A stretch of DNA of 64,000 bases, taken from positions 2,752,001 through 2,816,000 of the forward strand of contig OX638340.1 in NCBI GenBank assembly GCA_951812955.1. Direction: 5' to 3'. Positions 15,566 to 23,566 of this stretch are shown piece after piece. The notes beneath the pieces were generated by a model. That model did no database searches, had not been told where the DNA came from, and saw only the letters and a list, made by a program, of their open reading frames with translations. The translations under genes and the position numbers were made by a program. Each line of letters opens with the position of its first letter. Position 1 is the first letter of the stretch. The stretch is from an uncultured Gemmatimonadota bacterium (GTDB taxonomy: Bacteria > JAAXHH01).

Positions 15566-16717
15566 TTAACCCGATGATTTGAGTTCGTAGACGACTACAG
15601 TTGGATTGGGCAGATTCTTAACGTCCTGCGACAACACGACGGGTGCTTCTGAACGCAGCAGATAGAGTCGGTCACCCCTGGAGACGATCCCCTGCGAACC
15701 ACCGCCAATGTGCTCGGGCAATTGCAGGTCGCCGGTAACGTAATTGAGATCTGTGTCGTAGAGATCCAAAAACACGCGACGCTCATTTGGTTCGGCCAGG
15801 ACCACTCCTATCATCTCGTCTCCTATCTTCAACAGTTGTCTTATGTGGCTCCACGTGGCGTGGTACGCTTGTCGTTTGCGGAGATCGCTCGAAATTTCGT
15901 GCTCATCAAAGTCTGTCGAAGGCGGCACATAGTGCGACGATCTGCCCCGTACCGTTCGAATCAGTTTTCCACCAAGATCGTACTTCCGAAGTTCGTACTC
16001 ATAGGGGGTGATTACATAAAGGTGTGAACCAAGCAGCAAGATACCTCCCCCTCTGGATTCTCCCACGGTACTGAACTCCTCGTATTGATCGGCGAAACTG
16101 TTCTTGATCTCTCCTGACCTAGTGCACTCGTAGACTACCCTATCGGCCCCCTTCCTGCTAGCGACACCACTCGTATAGCAAAAGAAGCGATCGTCGGCTG
16201 TCACGATAATCTGACCCAGGAAAAGAGGAAGATCGACACTGCTGTTGAACGTAAAATCTTCGCTGTACTCCTGGATTCGCAGAAGATCTCCATCGTATAC
16301 GTAGTACCTGTGTGTTTGATCGCTATAGTAAAGGTTATCGGGGTAGAGGTATTGGTCCGCATTCGTCCCAAGACTTCCAATCTTCGCCTTGCTTCCGCCC
16401 TTGGAGTCGAATACAAGTATCTGTCGAACCCCGAAGTTATCCAACACAATGAAATCGCCCTGTTCGTTTATCGCGCTGAACCAGGGCAAAGCGCTCAGCG
16501 TGAAGCCCGAATCATTGGCAAGCGGGATCTGACGTATTTCTGTATACACTTCCAAGAAAGACTGTTTATCTCCATAGGAATCGGCGAGATGAGCAATGGA
16601 TGTATTGCGGGCTTCTTCCATCGAACCATGAGTACTCTGACACGCCATTGCTCCCATGAAAAACACCATTAGCGAAAAGGACAGCAACCGTAGCGTTTCA
16701 TTCGTTCGCTCTGACAT
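15566..16717 (-). CDS. 6-bladed beta-propeller lipoprotein, TolB-like/NHL-like (paralog B)
   Basis: Signal peptide plus AMAC lipobox-like. Blades GDFIVLDNFGVRQILVFDSKG and LYVITPYEYELRKYDLGGKLI are colinear with paralog A. AGGAGG lies 9 nt upstream of the ATG. Confidence 0.7.
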   Translation of the reverse strand: MSERTNETLRLLSFSLMVFFMGAMACQSTHGSMEEARNTSIAHLADSYGDKQSFLEVYTEIRQIPLANDSGFTLSALPWFSAINEQGDFIVLDNFGVRQILVFDSKGGSKAKIGSLGTNADQYLYPDNLYYSDQTHRYYVYDGDLLRIQEYSEDFTFNSSVDLPLFLGQIIVTADDRFFCYTSGVASRKGADRVVYECTRSGEIKNSFADQYEEFSTVGESRGGGILLLGSHLYVITPYEYELRKYDLGGKLIRTVRGRSSHYVPPSTDFDEHEISSDLRKRQAYHATWSHIRQLLKIGDEMIGVVLAEPNERRVFLDLYDTDLNYVTGDLQLPEHIGGGSQGIVSRGDRLYLLRSEAPVVLSQDVKNLPNPTVVVYELKSSG

Positions 16718-16750
16718 GGTTGGATTCCCTCCTCATTAGCTTGCCTTTAA

Positions 16751-17087
16751 CAGTACAACCGGAAAGTGCTCGCTTCTTAAGTTGACGCTTATCGTGAATC
16801 GAACCACCACAATCCTATCGGTCAGGCTTGACTACGCTCAAGGCCAGGTATGAGCGCTAAATGGAGAACAATGATGAGATGTCGAGGGCTGGCAGTGGTA
16901 CACGTTATTTGCTACATGTACCCAATTGTATACTTGATTGGCTCCTGCCGGCTCCGTGGACAACGCCAGCATGCTCATTGCGCCGGCCATCGTCAATGCA
17001 CCGACGAACATTACACGAGTGAAGATGCTTCTGATTGAAGTTTTGATGACCGTGCTCCTTTCATTGTGCCTTTCCGGTTGTACTGTG
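16751..17087. repeat. Perfect 16-bp inverted repeat (cagtacaaccggaaag / ctttccggttgtactg) flanking a 305-bp AT-richer segment
   Basis: Read directly from the sequence. Left arm 16751-16766, right arm 17072-17087. The IR extends to 17 bp with one more matching base. Confidence 0.8.
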
Positions 17088-17170
17088 CAATGAATAAAAT
17101 GACACCTGACCGATAGTCATCAACAGATACATATTGGAAGTGGAAACGGCTGGATATTTAGGGTAAAACC

Positions 17171-17692
17171 CTACACCTCCATAATCTCCACCAGTTCGTC
17201 TTCAGGATACGGGAAATGCCCCTGGGTACCCCGGTTGACCCGGGCCATGCGCTCCCCGAACACCATGTCTTCTCTGATCAATTCCGAAGTCCTGTGAATG
17301 CACTCCAACGTTGGGATTCCTCCTGTCGCGATCGCTGCTTCGGCTTCCTCCAGAAGAGCCGTCATGTCGTAAAACATCTTGATATTCGGCGACAGCATCT
17401 TGCGAGCCTGTTCCGGCAGTGAGGCGCGTAACTCCAGACAGAGATCGAGGGCTTTCAGAAGATGTTCCCTCGCGATTCGAAAGCACTTCCGTGCTTTACT
17501 CAGTGAAGCGCGATACGGCAGGATATTTCCCGCCAGGCAGGCGCCCAGATCTTCTATTTCCTCCAGGGCGCCAAGTCCCATGAAATAGTGGCCCCATCCC
17601 GTAAGTGTGAGCGGATAGATCCGGTGTTCGAAGGCTTCTTTGAGCTCCACATTGTCTGGCATCGGCGGAAGTGGGCAGGTCCAATCAGACAT
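17171..17692 (-). CDS. Hypothetical protein (173 aa)
   Basis: Clean ORF with no family recognised. First gene downstream of the palindromic operator-like site at 17793-17809. Confidence 0.5.
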   Translation of the reverse strand: MSDWTCPLPPMPDNVELKEAFEHRIYPLTLTGWGHYFMGLGALEEIEDLGACLAGNILPYRASLSKARKCFRIAREHLLKALDLCLELRASLPEQARKMLSPNIKMFYDMTALLEEAEAAIATGGIPTLECIHRTSELIREDMVFGERMARVNRGTQGHFPYPEDELVEIMEV

Positions 17693-17792
17693 TGTAGGCC
17701 TCCTTCAGTACATCAATTGGTGAAGAGACTCGCGGAGATGGAACACTGGAACGATCTACCCATTAAAGAAAGGAAAGCCGGACCGGTTATCT

Positions 17793-17809
17793 ATAGGGTG
17801 TATCCCTAT
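17793..17809. promoter_or_regulatory. Palindromic operator-like site ATAGGGTGTATCCCTAT, copy 1
   Basis: Perfect 6-bp arms with a 5-bp spacer. About 100 bp upstream of the start codon of 17171..17692 (minus strand). A near-identical copy lies at 18612-18628. Confidence 0.45.
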
Positions 17810-17890
17810 TTGCTCGTTTTTTTTCACCGGAATCGAAAAAACCTGATTCCGGTCTTGAAGGAGTAGAGCGTCTCCTTTAAACGAACGTGT

Positions 17891-18526
17891 TCATTCTTCC
17901 ATTTTGATCAGACCAAGTTTGATCGCCGCTCGGATCAGATCGGGAAGGCTGTGCGTGTCTAGTTTCGCCATCAGATTTATGCGATGATTCTGCACGGTTT
18001 TTATACTGATTCGCATGGTTTCGGCTATCTGGCGATTGGATCGCCCCGATACGATCAGTCGAAGGATTTCGCGCTCACGGGGAGTAAGCCGGGGCGGTGT
18101 GCCATGGGGGTACTCCTCATACAGGTAATCGGCATGATCCATGGCCCGGGATTGGTACGTAACGCCCCTGCAAACGGTGCGTATCGCTTTGACCAACTCT
18201 TCGCCCGCTGATTTCTTGAGCACGTAGCCCCTGGCGCCGTTGTCCAGCGCTTTCCGGATCAGTGCGGGATCGGAATGCATCGACAGCATGACCACCCGGA
18301 CCTCGGAAAACGACGCGCGAATCCGCCTCGTCGCTTCGATACCGTTGATACCGGGCATCTCGACGTCCATCACTATGACGTCCGTTCGGACTCGATGCAC
18401 GGCATCGATCGCCTCCCGGCCATCCACGGCCTCGGCGACTATTCGAATATCGGACTCTTTTTCGAGCAGGTCCCGCAGCCCCTGCCGAATCAGATGATGA
18501 TCGTCTGCAATCACTACGCGTATCAT
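17891..18526 (-). CDS. LuxR/NarL-family response regulator (REC + HTH)
   Basis: MIRVVIADDHHLIRQGLRDLL...DVIVMDVEMPGINGIEA... C-terminal LuxR HTH (LTPREREILRLIVSGRSNRQIAETMRISIKTVQNHR). Confidence 0.9.
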   Translation of the reverse strand: MIRVVIADDHHLIRQGLRDLLEKESDIRIVAEAVDGREAIDAVHRVRTDVIVMDVEMPGINGIEATRRIRASFSEVRVVMLSMHSDPALIRKALDNGARGYVLKKSAGEELVKAIRTVCRGVTYQSRAMDHADYLYEEYPHGTPPRLTPREREILRLIVSGRSNRQIAETMRISIKTVQNHRINLMAKLDTHSLPDLIRAAIKLGLIKMEE

Positions 18527-18611
18527 ATGATGTTCGCGATCTCCTCTTCTGGTCGTTACATGACGAAATCCGTCGTTTGCTCAATACTAACAACAAAAAG
18601 GGGGACTATCC

Positions 18612-18628
18612 ATAGGGTGTTTCCCTAT
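18612..18628. promoter_or_regulatory. Palindromic operator-like site ATAGGGTGTTTCCCTAT, copy 2
   Basis: Located in the 196-bp gap between the two response-regulator genes, about 85-100 bp upstream of the 17891..18526 start codon. Confidence 0.45.
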
Positions 18629-18722
18629 GTTCCGCTTTTTCTTACGGTATTGGGGGGCTGAAGTGGCGAGAGAGATAGACTGCGGCCAACCGGATTGCTA
18701 CCAAGCGGGGAAAGACGACGGT

Positions 18723-19376
18723 TCATTCATCCAGGAAAGCGAGACGGTGCTTGAGGGCCAGGAGTATGAGATCCGGCAGATTGTGGACTTTCAACTTCTT
18801 CATCAGGATCGCGCGGTGTTTTTCCACGGTCTTGTCGCTGATGTTCAGGACCTCCGCCGCGGCCTGATTGGTATGTCCCTCGACGATGAGCTGAAGTATC
18901 TCCCGTTCGCGGGATGAAAGCTGCTCCAGAACGGCCTTTGACTCATTCGCCGATTCCGTCTGCAGGAATCCCGATAGCACGGTTTGAGCAATCGAAGGTG
19001 AAAGATAGATTTCGCCCTTGTTGGCGGACCGGATGGCGATCAGGAGTTCCTCCACGACGGATCTCTTGAGGAGATACCCGCTGGCCCCGCATCTGAGCGC
19101 CTGGCGCACCACGTCCTCATCCGAATGCATGGATAGTATGACGACGCGGGTATCGACGGACAGCGTCTGAATCCGCCGCGTGGTCTCGATACCGTTCAGC
19201 AAAGGCATGGCGATATCCAACATGGCGACGTCCGGTCTCTTCCGTTGTACCAGGTTCAGGGTCTCGTGACCATCGGCCGCTTCGCCGACAACTTCCATAT
19301 CCTCGGCCTTTTCGATTAGAGACACGATGCTTTGACGGACCAGTTGGTGATCGTCGGCAATAACGATCCTGATCAT
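18723..19376 (-). CDS. LuxR/NarL-family response regulator (REC + HTH), paralog
   Basis: MIRIVIADDHQLVRQSIVSLIE... LSSREREILQLIVEGHTNQAAAEVLNISDKTVEKHR. Its start overlaps the kinase stop (ATGA). Confidence 0.9.
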   Translation of the reverse strand: MIRIVIADDHQLVRQSIVSLIEKAEDMEVVGEAADGHETLNLVQRKRPDVAMLDIAMPLLNGIETTRRIQTLSVDTRVVILSMHSDEDVVRQALRCGASGYLLKRSVVEELLIAIRSANKGEIYLSPSIAQTVLSGFLQTESANESKAVLEQLSSREREILQLIVEGHTNQAAAEVLNISDKTVEKHRAILMKKLKVHNLPDLILLALKHRLAFLDE

Positions 19377-22159
19377 TTCTCCTCCAAAGGAATTGTAGCG
19401 ACCAGACGGGCTCCCGCGCCTGGTTTCGAGTAAACATTCATGCGGCCATTCAGCGATTCAAGGCGTTCCTGCATATCTATCAAACCGATTCCTGTTTCAT
19501 TCTGATCCGAAAGTGTATCTGCAAGATCAAAACCCTGGCCGTTATCCTGTATCGATAGTTGTACGACTTCGCCATTGCGTTTCAAGCTAACTTCCACATG
19601 AGAGGCTTGTCCGTGTTTGACGCAGTTCGTCAGCCCTTCCTGCAGTATACGATACAGGCAGATATCGATTGGATTGGAGATTTCCGTAGTATCCATGCCA
19701 ACGTATGAGACCGGCATTTGAGTTCGTTGTGTTAAACTCTTGCATAGTCCTTCCAATGCTGTATTCAGCCCGACTGTATCCAGTGTCGGGGGACGGAGAT
19801 TATGGGAGATCGCACGTAGTTTCTCCAGCGTCTCGTCGGTTAGCGCCACGGCGTCGCTCAGCCGTTCTGCCGTATGATCGGAGACCCCGGACAACTCGTT
19901 CCGGGTTATTTCAAGGCTCATCTTCAGCGCCGTGAGCGCTTGTCCCGTATCGTCATGGAGATCCCGCGCCAGCCGGCTTCTTTCCGATTCCTGAATGTCG
20001 ATGAGTCGTCTGGAGAGTCTCTTCAATCCCAGGGCCTGATGCCGTAGCGATGTTGCCATATCGAGGTTCTTCAACGCCAATTCCAATTCGGCCGACAGGA
20101 CCAGCAACTGTTCTTTTTCATCGCTGTTGAACGGTTCTTCGCTGAGTTTTGCACCCAGTGCAATACATCCTTGACGGTCAGATCCTTGTCCGAGTACGAC
20201 CATGAGTTCGCACCCGGTGTCTCTCATACTTTCATTTGCGTACAGTTCGCGATACTCGACCAACGATTGCTCGGGGGGTATCGATCGCAGAAGGCCTTCG
20301 ACCTTGCCGGCTGCTTCAGTGAAGAACGTTTCATTTCTCTTGAGATCCTGCTCCGGCTTCTCACGCACTGCGTACCATCGGACCGAAAGCGATTCCTGAG
20401 GACTTTCTGCAAGGTATATCGCCAGATAGCAAACGTCCAATCCCTCCAGCAACTCTTGCCCGGTGGCGCTCAAAAGCGCATTACGATCCTGGTATTGCGT
20501 TAAGGATTGCTCGAGTCTGAAAAGGCGTTGTCGGTTTTCATATTCATCACGCAAAAGATATTGATTCAGTAAGCGGATGACGGGCGTCTTCACCCAGGTC
20601 CACCCTCCGACGAGTATCAAGGTGAATCCAGCGGCAGCGCTGGCGATCAGAAGATCGGAGGTTTCCATACCGGTCGGCCACACGGATATCAGTTCAAATA
20701 GTGCGATTAACGTCCAGAAGCTGAATATGAGATATATGCTCTTGGCATTGGCCAGGTAACGCAGACCACTTCCGAAGACGAACTTCAGGCCGAACACTCG
20801 GTGTGCCAGAATGGTATAGACAAAGGCGAGCGGCAGTCCACACTGCAGTACTACGTGGATGATCCGATCGAAGAGCCAGACTAATACCGGCAGGGCGGCC
20901 CCCCTTATTGGAATCAGGTCCCAACTGGCCAGAAGTGTACCAGGTTGCGTAATAGTCCACACGGGAGCCAAAATGAGGGCCGAGATGAATCCTGCCTTGA
21001 TGATATGCAGTCGCGTGCGTTGCTGATGCCGCGCGACGGAACGTTGGGCTATCATAAGACATCCCGCGGCGATGACAACGAGGGTGGGCAGCGCGGGAAC
21101 GGGCACTGGTTCAACGATTTCCGTGATGATACCAACTCCTGCGTGGTCCCACCCATAGGTCAGACTCAGCAAATAGATCAGACGGCACGATAGCCAGACA
21201 ATCAGGGGCGTCAGGATGAACCACCGGTTTTTGAGCAGCCATGATCCGAAAGCCGTCGCACTGGGGAAGACGGCAAGAATCCGAAACATGAGAACGATTT
21301 CCAGTAAGGATGCCGCGACGATGGCGAATATGCTGAGGAACAGTACCCAGTCCGGCCATCCGGCTATCATGGGATGGAAAGCGGGCGAGGAGGAAAGCGC
21401 CATAGCGAGGAAGAGCAACGCGCATCGAAAGGCAAGGGGACTGTGCGGACTCCTGAACCCCATCCAGGTTCCGAAGACCAGCAGGACCATCGGTAAAATC
21501 AGATACGGCCCCCGTTGGAACCACGTCATCGCGCCTACGCCCAGTACGAGTTCCTCCTGATTGACCTCGACTGCGTATCGTACCTGTTCCGTGGCCTCAA
21601 GCGTGAGTATACCAGCGTGCATGCTGCCGTCGCGAAGCCAGGCAAGATTGAAACGTTCACCGGGCTTGCTCCGCAAACGCGCCTGGAAATAGGCTTCGGG
21701 ACGTGTCCCGAGATCCGTGCCATCAATAGAGATCACCAGGTCACCCGGTCGCAATCCGGCTTTGTCCGCAGGGCTGTCCGCGTCTACTTGCGTGACGGTA
21801 ATACCGCCGTCCTCGCGTATGCGAACGAGGTGGAACCACGTGCCCTCCTGCAGATTGCTCACCGCACTTTTCGTGAGTCCCTTCGTCTGTATCATTTCAT
21901 TTCCGAAGAACTGGATACCCGGTGACCAGTGCTCGATTTGCGTGAACCGTACCAGCGTCCACGTGACCAGTCCTAAATGCATACACGTGAACATGACCAG
22001 TGCGCTGAGTGCGACGTATCGGCGGATGAGTGTCTTCAACCGAGAGCTACTCAATTGCGAGGGAATTGTATTTGAAGAGTCATTCATGTCAACATACAGA
22101 TTGCTTTTCGAGAAGCATCCTGAAGCAATTTCGGAAAACAGGTGGACTTGACTCAACAA
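19373..22159 (-). CDS. Membrane sensor histidine kinase with N-terminal PDZ domain, multi-TM region, GAF-like and HisKA_3/HATPase_c domains
   Basis: PDZ-like segment VTQVDADSPADKAGLRPGDLVISIDGTDL after TM1. About 8-10 hydrophobic helices. H-box ERSRLARDLHDDTGQALTAL (NarL-type HisKA_3). Then N/G boxes (DNGQGFD, GIGLIDMQERL). Confidence 0.85.
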   Translation of the reverse strand: MLSQVHLFSEIASGCFSKSNLYVDMNDSSNTIPSQLSSSRLKTLIRRYVALSALVMFTCMHLGLVTWTLVRFTQIEHWSPGIQFFGNEMIQTKGLTKSAVSNLQEGTWFHLVRIREDGGITVTQVDADSPADKAGLRPGDLVISIDGTDLGTRPEAYFQARLRSKPGERFNLAWLRDGSMHAGILTLEATEQVRYAVEVNQEELVLGVGAMTWFQRGPYLILPMVLLVFGTWMGFRSPHSPLAFRCALLFLAMALSSSPAFHPMIAGWPDWVLFLSIFAIVAASLLEIVLMFRILAVFPSATAFGSWLLKNRWFILTPLIVWLSCRLIYLLSLTYGWDHAGVGIITEIVEPVPVPALPTLVVIAAGCLMIAQRSVARHQQRTRLHIIKAGFISALILAPVWTITQPGTLLASWDLIPIRGAALPVLVWLFDRIIHVVLQCGLPLAFVYTILAHRVFGLKFVFGSGLRYLANAKSIYLIFSFWTLIALFELISVWPTGMETSDLLIASAAAGFTLILVGGWTWVKTPVIRLLNQYLLRDEYENRQRLFRLEQSLTQYQDRNALLSATGQELLEGLDVCYLAIYLAESPQESLSVRWYAVREKPEQDLKRNETFFTEAAGKVEGLLRSIPPEQSLVEYRELYANESMRDTGCELMVVLGQGSDRQGCIALGAKLSEEPFNSDEKEQLLVLSAELELALKNLDMATSLRHQALGLKRLSRRLIDIQESERSRLARDLHDDTGQALTALKMSLEITRNELSGVSDHTAERLSDAVALTDETLEKLRAISHNLRPPTLDTVGLNTALEGLCKSLTQRTQMPVSYVGMDTTEISNPIDICLYRILQEGLTNCVKHGQASHVEVSLKRNGEVVQLSIQDNGQGFDLADTLSDQNETGIGLIDMQERLESLNGRMNVYSKPGAGARLVATIPLEEK

Positions 22160-22307: not shown

Positions 22308-22703
22308 TTAGCCGTCCGGTTCGGCGACATAGGTGTAGAGGATCGTTCCATCCCGGTCAAGCTGGAAGACCTCGTACCGCTTGGAGGGCGAGTATAGAAT
22401 ACGGCCATCAGGTGTTTGCGACAGATGGTTAAAGTTGGTTCGCACAGGTATGGTTGGTTTGCCGCCTATCACGAACTTACCGATTCCGTAACGAAGATTA
22501 CCGCCCATTTCGTAAACGGCGAAAATCGGTTCGTCCCATACGGAATTCACGGCGATCTCTCCGTCGTTCCCGGCCAGGATTCCGCTGGGAGGCAACAGAT
22601 TCTCGATGCGAAAATCCGAGAGGTGCGCGCCGTTCATCGTAAAGACCGTAATACGATTGTTTCCCGAGTCAAGAACAATGACTTTCTCATTGGATATGGC
22701 CAC
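22308..22703 (-). pseudogene. Fragment of a 6-bladed beta-propeller protein (same family as 13756..14844)
   Basis: VIVLDSGNNRITVFTMNGAHL...YEVFQLDRDG aligns to internal blades of the intact paralogs. It lacks the N-terminal signal and the C-terminal third, and flanking frames are broken. Confidence 0.55.
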
Positions 22704-23032: not shown

Positions 23033-23566
23033 CTATCCAACAGTCTGGTCTGGCACTCTTTCACCTCGGCTTCCTACAACGCTACCACACAAATCGTAGA
23101 CCGTAAAAAGTGTTTGCCCCCAGAGAGAATTGACCGCGATCTGGCCGTTCTTGCTCGCCAGTATTCCGGATGTCATTTGAAATTCCAACCGGAAGTCGTC
23201 TAAATACATACCATCCATCTTGAATATCATTACCCGGCTATTGCCGGAATCGTTCACGATGACTTTGTTTTCAAATACAGCTGCTCCTCCTGGACGCAGC
23301 AGTTCACCGGGGCCGGCCCCGTCCCGGCCAATGCGGCTGATCAGTTTGCCCTCTGAGTCACAAATCCAGACTGTATTCTGCTGCCCGTCCGTCAGGTAAA
23401 ACCGGCCGTCGTTGTCCCGTATCAGGTCTCCGATTTTTCCAGCAATCTCATCTTCAAGATCCAGCGGAATTGCACTGACTTTCTCGACTGCGAATGGCTG
23501 GGCATTTGCGGAACCCAAAAGTAACCACCATGATACAGGTTGATACAACCATGATAAGAACGGCAA
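23033..23566 (-). pseudogene. N-terminal fragment of a 6-bladed beta-propeller protein (signal peptide retained)
   Basis: Signal peptide, then VIVNDSGNSRVMIFKMDGMYLDDFRLEF...QIAVNSLWGQTLFTVYDL, highly similar to fragment 22308..22703 and to the intact paralogs. Truncated after about 177 aa. Confidence 0.55.

Follow-up and report, generated by a model that had tools for sequence, protein, structure and literature searches.

We identified three copies of a palindromic element, TAGGG-N5-CCCTA, within a two-component signalling cassette of an uncultured bacterium. The element is probably an operator through which a NarL/LuxR-type response regulator encoded in the cassette itself acts, and its three copies would turn on three promoters. 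It would then be a palindromic NarL/LuxR-type operator at a class II-like position, that is, an element of a well-known kind, from an uncultured marine phylum. The analysis covered a window of 64,000 nucleotides (the whole stretch of DNA under study) together with 15 further loci, apparently from Candidatus Latescibacterota, which were drawn from the contigs of homologues of a 173-aa protein and from a scan of species-representative genomes, giving 16 loci with the window. The sole named relative is a Candidatus Latescibacterota MAG (L015). Literature searches returned no description of the motif or of the signalling system.

The cassette lies entirely on the minus strand and is transcribed in the order histidine kinase, RR1, site 2, RR2, site 1, 173-aa gene, site 3, peptide ORF and downstream cluster, where RR1 and RR2 are response regulators and the sites are the palindromes:

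19373-22087, minus strand: sensor histidine kinase with a PDZ domain, membrane segments, HisKA_3 and HATPase_c
18723-19376, minus strand: RR1, a NarL/VraR-type response regulator of 217 aa (REC + GerE HTH)
18612-18628, minus strand: site 2, ATAGGGTGTTTCCCTAT on the forward strand and ATAGGGAAACACCCTAT on the gene strand, core 18613-18627
17891-18526, minus strand: RR2 (REC + GerE), 211 aa, a paralogue 47% identical to RR1
17793-17809, minus strand: site 1, ATAGGGTGTATCCCTAT on the forward strand and ATAGGGATACACCCTAT on the gene strand, core 17794-17808
17171-17692, minus strand: 173-aa gene, no family match, the conserved first target of the predicted operator
17159-17173, minus strand: site 3, TAGGGTAAAACCCTA on the forward strand and TAGGGTTTTACCCTA on the gene strand, found with the relaxed core
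16838-17011, minus strand: small peptide ORF with a signal peptide and two Cys, 57 aa here and 69 aa in L013
13255-16717, minus strand: downstream cluster of two DUF5128 beta-propellers, a thioredoxin-like protein and a MauE/DoxX protein

The kinase likely starts at the ATG at 22087 (904 aa, as in L013), and the end of its gene overlaps RR1 by 4 nt. Its PDZ domain, an unusual sensor module for a HisKA_3 kinase, is N-terminal (residues ~104-180 of the 928-aa ORF), stands before the many membrane segments and is kept in all orthologues.

The original prediction placed two copies of the 17-mer ATAGGG-N5-CCCTAT at 17793-17809 and 18612-18628, and both are found exactly there. They are the sole exact matches in the 64-kb window, compared with none expected and none among 100 dinucleotide-preserving shuffles of the window, and a search of the same 64 kb for the full 17-mer with up to three mismatches returned no match beyond these two. 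The shorter core TAGGG-N5-CCCTA has three exact 15-mer matches in 64 kb, all within the cassette. A count of two is thus right for the 17-mers, but overlooked the third core copy at 17159-17173. The predicted similarity of the distances to the start codons was also borne out, as the near edges of sites 1 and 2 lie 101 nt from the ATG of the 173-aa gene (17692) and 86 nt from that of the 211-aa LuxR-type regulator (18526), respectively. From site centre to downstream ATG, the distance is 109 nt for site 1, whose spacer, from RR2 to the 173-aa gene, measures 198 nt, and 94 nt for site 2, whose spacer, from RR1 to RR2, measures 196 nt. Site 3 overlaps the TAG stop of the 173-aa gene and is ~100-150 nt upstream of the small secreted-peptide ORF at the head of the downstream cluster. 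Sites 1 and 2 are alike over 37 nt at 78% identity (17788-17824 versus 18607-18643) and show no likeness beyond. An A-rich tract, GTGAAAAAAAACGAGCAAA on the gene strand, lies upstream of site 1 (17810-17828, minus strand). All three copies sit between co-directional genes, and no site was found in the window ahead of the pair formed by the kinase and RR1.

The element is conserved with the cassette. The block of kinase, RR1, RR2 (where present) and 173-aa gene is kept in all 16 loci, with different genes beyond it from locus to locus, and RR1 is represented in every one by the gene or its end (the contig of L009 holds the 3' end only). A site occurs upstream of the 173-aa orthologue in 16 of 16 loci, its position kept, and in every one of the 11 spacers that separate an RR1 from an RR2, although the loci are phylogenetically related and site counts therefore exceed the number of independent observations. 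Identity among the 173-aa orthologues falls to 55% across the loci and the core still holds its position. In the alignment upstream of the 173-aa gene, the spacer sequence around the core is unalignable, and the palindrome is the best-conserved block apart from the ribosome-binding site. From 34 distinct sites, the consensus on the gene strand is aaaa-TAGGG-WWAC-A-CCCTA-T-nG, with an A-rich 5' flank at motif positions -4 to -1. Both five-base arms carry ~1.5-1.8 bits per position in this set, and such a symmetric core with equally strong arms fits binding by a regulator dimer. Conservation of positions 10 (A), 16 (T) and 18 (G) is confined to the downstream side, which indicates that the element is directional and points toward the downstream gene.

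Site 3 appears to belong to the genes that follow it. In L013, the closest relative, its counterpart CAGGGGTTTACCCTA is kept ahead of the same small-peptide gene, where the 173-family protein is six residues longer, so that its stop lies upstream of the motif, which stands 24 nt past it. In L002 the downstream genes differ and the third site is absent. That the site is retained in L013 despite another coding context and is missing from L002 argues that it goes with the small-peptide/DUF5128 cluster and not with the end of the 173-aa gene, and its retention in L013 points to selection on the site itself. The peptide ORF is the probable first gene driven from site 3. The peptide gene starts with ATG in L013 (10688-10724, corresponding to 17011-17047 of the window), where the window has ATC; 12 codons downstream of this ATC, an ATA has become ATG, which opens the 57-aa ORF. 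Such an apparently compensatory shift of the start codon argues that the peptide ORF is a real gene.

Placement and specificity of the motif point in the same direction as its conservation. The cassette loci total 319 kb and contain 24 exact cores and 12 with one mismatch; 35 of these 36 fall in non-coding sequence, which makes up 12% of the total (P ~5e-31). As a control, 367 kb around 80 other NarL-family regulator genes contained two exact and five one-mismatch cores; these genes came from a metagenome scan with the RR1 alignment, in which receiver-domain peptides drove the matches, and are mostly generic NarL-family regulators. One control locus, L017, encodes a regulator 59% identical to RR1 with the same recognition helix (KTVEKHR) and carries caaaggTAGGGCAATCCCCCAtagata 63 nt past the regulator's stop; its 3.3-kb contig holds no 173-family gene. 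Additional sites occur within the cassette loci themselves. At L007 5539, L008 5337-5351 and L011 4468-4482, the kinase gene and a divergent gene for a giant Big_2/LRR surface protein (1565-1851 aa) have a site between them, and each of these sites scores better in the orientation that faces the Big_2/LRR gene. Others precede an unclassified membrane protein (L004 19951, L005 18241) or a small gene (L008 383), or lie beside an ion-channel gene (L016 13918).

A (G/T)AGGGT-like block recurs ~22 nt, or roughly two helical turns, upstream of the palindrome (e.g. aaaaTAGGGTgtttatatccaaaaggTAGGGAATCACCCTA). It is seen at L004 19922-19965 and L005 18218-18255 and upstream of the 173-aa gene in L003-L008, L011, L012 and L014-L016, and is absent at the window's own sites. 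From its sequence and spacing, this block may be an auxiliary half-site on the same helix face.

We aligned the 36 sites without gaps, anchored on the core, and judged the neighbouring hexamers by their likeness to -35 and -10 elements, which may not be the rules of this phylum. A TAnnnT hexamer occurs 22-24 nt after the core in 21 of the 36 sites, and at exactly 23 nt in 13 of them, whereas nearly all other offsets have a count of 0-2. The spacing is exactly 23 nt in most sites of the RR2 class. AT content at this position is 0.81-0.85, versus ~0.5 elsewhere. The six bases right after the core read T[AGT]G[A].. (e.g. TGGATA, TAGATA), and at the Big_2/LRR site of L007 they form a perfect TTGACA. 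The post-core hexamer thus looks like a weak -35 element followed by a 17-nt spacer, and a -35-like element that abuts the core would account for the one-sided T and G in the logo. Taken with the spacing to the -10-like hexamer, this arrangement would put the core at about -50 to -36, its centre near -43. Two promoters are predicted in the window on this basis:

18584-18612, minus strand: predicted promoter of RR2, TGGATA at 18612-18607, a 17-nt spacer and TAGTAT at 18589-18584
17762-17793, minus strand: predicted promoter of the 173-aa gene, TAGATA at 17793-17788 and a weak -10-like hexamer, TTCTTT at 17770-17765 or TTTAAT at 17767-17762

Site 2 is the clearest promoter case in the window, with RR2 presumably transcribed from it and a predicted start near 18577; the -10-like hexamer of site 1 is weaker, and the -35-like hexamer of site 3 is poor (AATATC). 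Scanned for the sigma-70 consensus, the region gave no match at the stringency used, and the promoter assignments therefore rest on the core-anchored alignment.

Both regulators are typical phospho-accepting REC + GerE proteins, the receiver domain of RR2 included. Their nearest solved relatives are VraR, NarL, DesR and DevR, with VraR scoring best for both, and both fall below every NCBIfam equivalog cut-off, that of NarL included. Across 15 orthologues of RR1 the recognition helix reads KTVE[KR]HR without exception, whereas that of RR2 varies (KTVQNHR, KTVEIHR, NTVRNHR and others), and RR2 is missing altogether from L006 and L015, both of which keep the site. Because its helix is invariant and it is found at every locus, RR1 is the likelier candidate for the palindrome-binding protein. 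As we picture it, the kinase would phosphorylate RR1, and perhaps RR2, and a regulator dimer would occupy the two-fold symmetric core. A weak -35-like hexamer would directly abut this core, its first base being the T that ends CCCTAT, so that the core centre would stand ~30 bp upstream of the -10 hexamer, near -43. The bound dimer would then recruit RNA polymerase in the fashion of a class II activator, and the three copies in the window would drive RR2, the 173-aa gene and the small-peptide/DUF5128 cluster. Activation is the effect we infer for the putative operator.

The original prediction had read the palindromes as the operator of an autoregulated response regulator that also controls the downstream cluster. 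Conservation, intergenic placement, fit to the predicted promoters, specificity and the lack of RNA covariation all favour the operator itself. Autoregulation has a more limited basis, as site 2 precedes RR2 and not the kinase and RR1. If RR1 is the binder, RR2 would be its target through site 2, which would make a cascade or feed-forward arrangement and not autoregulation; and without a site before the kinase and RR1, the window gives no sign that the system as a whole is autoregulated in the classical way. Control of the downstream cluster is likewise plausible, but through the separate site 3 and not through the two copies on which it had been founded.

Could the palindrome act in RNA instead, as an intercistronic hairpin in a long transcript from the kinase to the 173-aa gene, serving processing, stability or attenuation? 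The co-directional setting of all three copies in the window would suit such a role, as would the 6-7-bp hairpins they form, whose folding energies are -7 to -11.7 kcal/mol and of which two have z ~-4. Yet not one compensatory change is found in the six pairs across the 34 distinct sites, and each of the 13 core pairs that are broken has changed on one side only. A search by sequence match, which supplied most of the sites, is biased against doubly changed (compensated) variants; this does not apply to the set anchored by position upstream of the 173-aa gene, which is equally one-sided (e.g. TAGTG, CACTA, GACTA, TCCTA, CCTTA, CCCCA). What has been conserved across deep divergence is the arm sequence itself, beyond its pairing. 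Moreover, no U-tract follows the stem, no terminator-like site was called, no Rfam match was significant, the sites between divergent genes in L007, L008 and L011 cannot be intercistronic, and a role in RNA leaves the fixed 23-nt spacing to TAnnnT unexplained. We regard this possibility as very unlikely. Less credible still, indeed barely worth entertaining, is that the two copies are a functionless remnant of the tandem duplication of RR1 and RR2, or a small dispersed repeat. The regulators are indeed paralogues (47% identity) and the copies share 37 nt at 78%, but the likeness ends there, the core persists in spacers that have otherwise diverged beyond alignment, even where protein identity is as low as 55%, and neither site 3 nor the Big_2/LRR sites are linked to a duplication of regulator genes.

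Other alternatives accept a protein-binding site and differ over what binds it and to what effect. The extra sites at genes outside the four-gene core (L004 19951, L005 18241, L008 383, L016 13918) could suggest a transcription factor encoded elsewhere, or the unclassified 173-aa protein, with the linkage to the cassette incidental, and RR1 and RR2 are themselves putative binders. However, the motif goes with the cassette at each locus, also where one genome has two paralogous copies, and the control loci nearly lack it. The 173-aa model is a plain helical bundle in which no DNA-binding fold is recognisable, and L017 has an RR1-like regulator and a site with no 173-family gene on its 3.3-kb contig; we therefore think it improbable that the binder lies outside the pair of regulators. 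A better case, though one we would still call unlikely, can be made for a real operator that represses, or that has RR2 or an RR1-RR2 heterodimer as its binder, in a negative-feedback or switch circuit. A dimer on a core that abuts the -35-like hexamer could exclude RNA polymerase, RR2 has an intact receiver domain and a site-bearing promoter of its own, and two paralogous regulators per cassette suggest divided labour. Against repression, weak -35-like hexamers (TGGATA, TAGATA) are typical of activator-dependent promoters, and NarL activates from a comparable position; against RR2, its helix varies where the motif is constant, and two site-bearing loci have no RR2. On balance, activation by RR1 remains the reading we prefer.

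Three known kinds of element were compared and rejected. An intrinsic terminator does not fit, because no terminator-like site occurs in 16700-19500 and the palindromes are followed by AGAUAA or GGAUAG on the gene strand. A structured cis-regulatory RNA or attenuator was set aside for want of covariation (6 pairs, 34 sequences), a U-tract or a significant Rfam match, and a dispersed repeat of the REP/MITE type because only three copies occur in 64 kb, all in the cassette, with a likeness of at most 37 nt. The original prediction had also pointed to an adjoining hairpin:

17827-17852, no strand assigned: 8-bp hairpin, ccggaatc-N10-gattccgg, -14 kcal/mol, z ~-3

This hairpin exists but is not conserved, with a mismatch in L013 and no counterpart in L002 or in the second cassette of L016; only its 3' arm and the A-tract after it are kept. 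Lacking both conservation and a U-tract, it was rejected as a terminator, and it is probably irrelevant.

The NarL/NarP operators are among the closest known systems. In E. coli the NarL/NarP heptamer has the consensus TACYYMT, with the C-run first. Both systems have two inverted half-sites of ~7 bp for a REC + GerE dimer with a HisKA_3 kinase as its partner, and a CCC/GGG triplet in the half-sites. The polarity differs, however, with the G-run first in the present motif (TAGGG...CCCTA), and so do the recognition-helix residues of RR1 and RR2, which are unlike those of NarL. The NarL site is an inverted 7-base repeat with a 2-bp gap, and a single site suffices for activation when its centre is at -44.5, which is 32 bp from the -10 element (PMC9314961). 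Its distance thus resembles the ~30 bp that separate the present core centre from the -10-like hexamer, whereas the spacing here is 7-3-7 (or 5-5-5) and not 7-2-7. Because polarity and spacing differ, the palindrome is not a NarL 7-2-7 site proper.

As a lead, the G-first polarity is shared with the DevR/DosR box of Mycobacterium tuberculosis, a 20-bp palindrome (GGGAC...GTCCC) bound by a NarL-family dimer, proximal copies of which lie beside the -35 region. DevR is among the nearest solved relatives of the two regulators and its box also has the G-triplet first and the C-triplet second, but the triplets are 8 bp apart there and 5 bp apart here, the flanking bases differ, and the hypoxia regulon biology and the phylum are unrelated. 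The lux box, a 20-bp palindrome centred near -42.5, serves class II-type activation by LuxR-type quorum-sensing activators. It resembles the present element in that the GerE/LuxR C-terminal HTH superfamily is involved and the palindrome overlaps or abuts the -35 region; in contrast, LuxR is activated by a ligand and not by phosphorylation, and the palindrome is longer and unrelated in sequence. The LiaR/VraR regulators of envelope stress, which induce small target genes, likewise have a dedicated, strongly linked target gene immediately downstream, with a site within their own gene string. Unlike them, the present system has a kinase with a PDZ domain and many membrane segments, lacks a LiaF-like partner and has an unrelated presumed target, the 173-aa protein without a family match.

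The 173-aa protein has no Pfam or NCBIfam match. Its 39 homologue clusters, at 56-92% identity, are all metagenomic, and an exhaustive profile search of 1.8 billion representatives recovered only 24 clusters, so that the family is small and says little about function. Its confident AlphaFold model (pLDDT 86) is a helical bundle, without a recognisable DNA-binding fold. Within the family His133 and His159 are invariant, and Cys6, Cys52, Cys85 and Cys131 nearly so. Its place as a constant, separately promoted target suggests, speculatively, an accessory or feedback role.

Some genomes carry the cassette more than once. A single 3.9-Mb chromosome (OY762445.1) contains both L013 and L014, so that one genome has two paralogous cassettes, while in L016 (8271-10534, 18130-19700) and L012 (19754-20522) a second cassette is found ~10 kb from the first. 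With one palindrome common to all the copies, the cassettes may regulate one another.

A wider reading, which we offer only tentatively and as a whole think doubtful, is that the kinase, RR1, RR2 and the 173-aa protein form an undescribed, self-contained Latescibacterota signalling module. Its parts would be a HisKA_3 kinase with a PDZ domain, a pair of paralogous regulators of the NarL type and an unclassified helical-bundle protein bearing Cys and His residues. With several copies per genome and one common operator, the modules would amount to a cross-wired network. Within it, RR1 may induce RR2, as a cascade or as a feed-forward loop, the 173-aa protein would assist or feed back on two-component signalling as a factor of a new kind, and the secreted two-Cys peptide driven from site 3 could be sensed by the PDZ domain of the kinase, closing an autoinducing loop.

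Should the operator reading be right, it would supply a testable cis-element, with a consensus, an orientation rule and a promoter spacing, for a poorly understood uncultured phylum, and the motif could be used to annotate Latescibacterota promoters and regulons. The minimal regulon would consist of RR2, the conserved 173-aa protein and lineage-dependent targets, the latter being either the secreted-peptide/beta-propeller cluster or the giant Big_2/LRR surface proteins, and an unclassified protein, that of 173 aa, would be tied to signal transduction. The known working of NarL/LuxR-type regulators is left unchanged by the finding.

Several features of the loci deserve separate mention. The RR1-RR2 spacer of L011 (7963-9155) is 1.2 kb long and opens with the palindrome and what appear to be the first RR2-like codons, ATGATTCGAATAGTTATAGTAGACGATCATCAC; unrelated sequence follows, after which RR2 resumes as a 200-aa ORF. 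With its start thus split from the remainder, the gene has apparently been broken up by an insertion. At L008 9671-9775, about five tandem copies of a 17-nt unit like CATCCGCGTTACACAG open the spacer that runs from RR2 to the 173-aa gene. In the window, the peptide ORF is flanked by a perfect 17-nt inverted repeat (16750-16766 / 17070-17086, ACAGTACAACCGGAAAG / CTTTCCGGTTGTACTGT) and by a perfect 12-nt inverted repeat (16815-16826 / 17105-17116), the arms of which cross (X, Y, X', Y'), and all four arms lie in blocks conserved in L013. These repeats could reflect long-range mRNA pairing of the leaders of the peptide and DUF5128 genes, or an invertible segment. Upstream of the kinase, two minus-strand ORFs (22308-22703, 131 aa; 23033-23566, 177 aa) match the NHL / DUF5128 six-bladed propeller only partly and may be fragments of a disrupted propeller gene.
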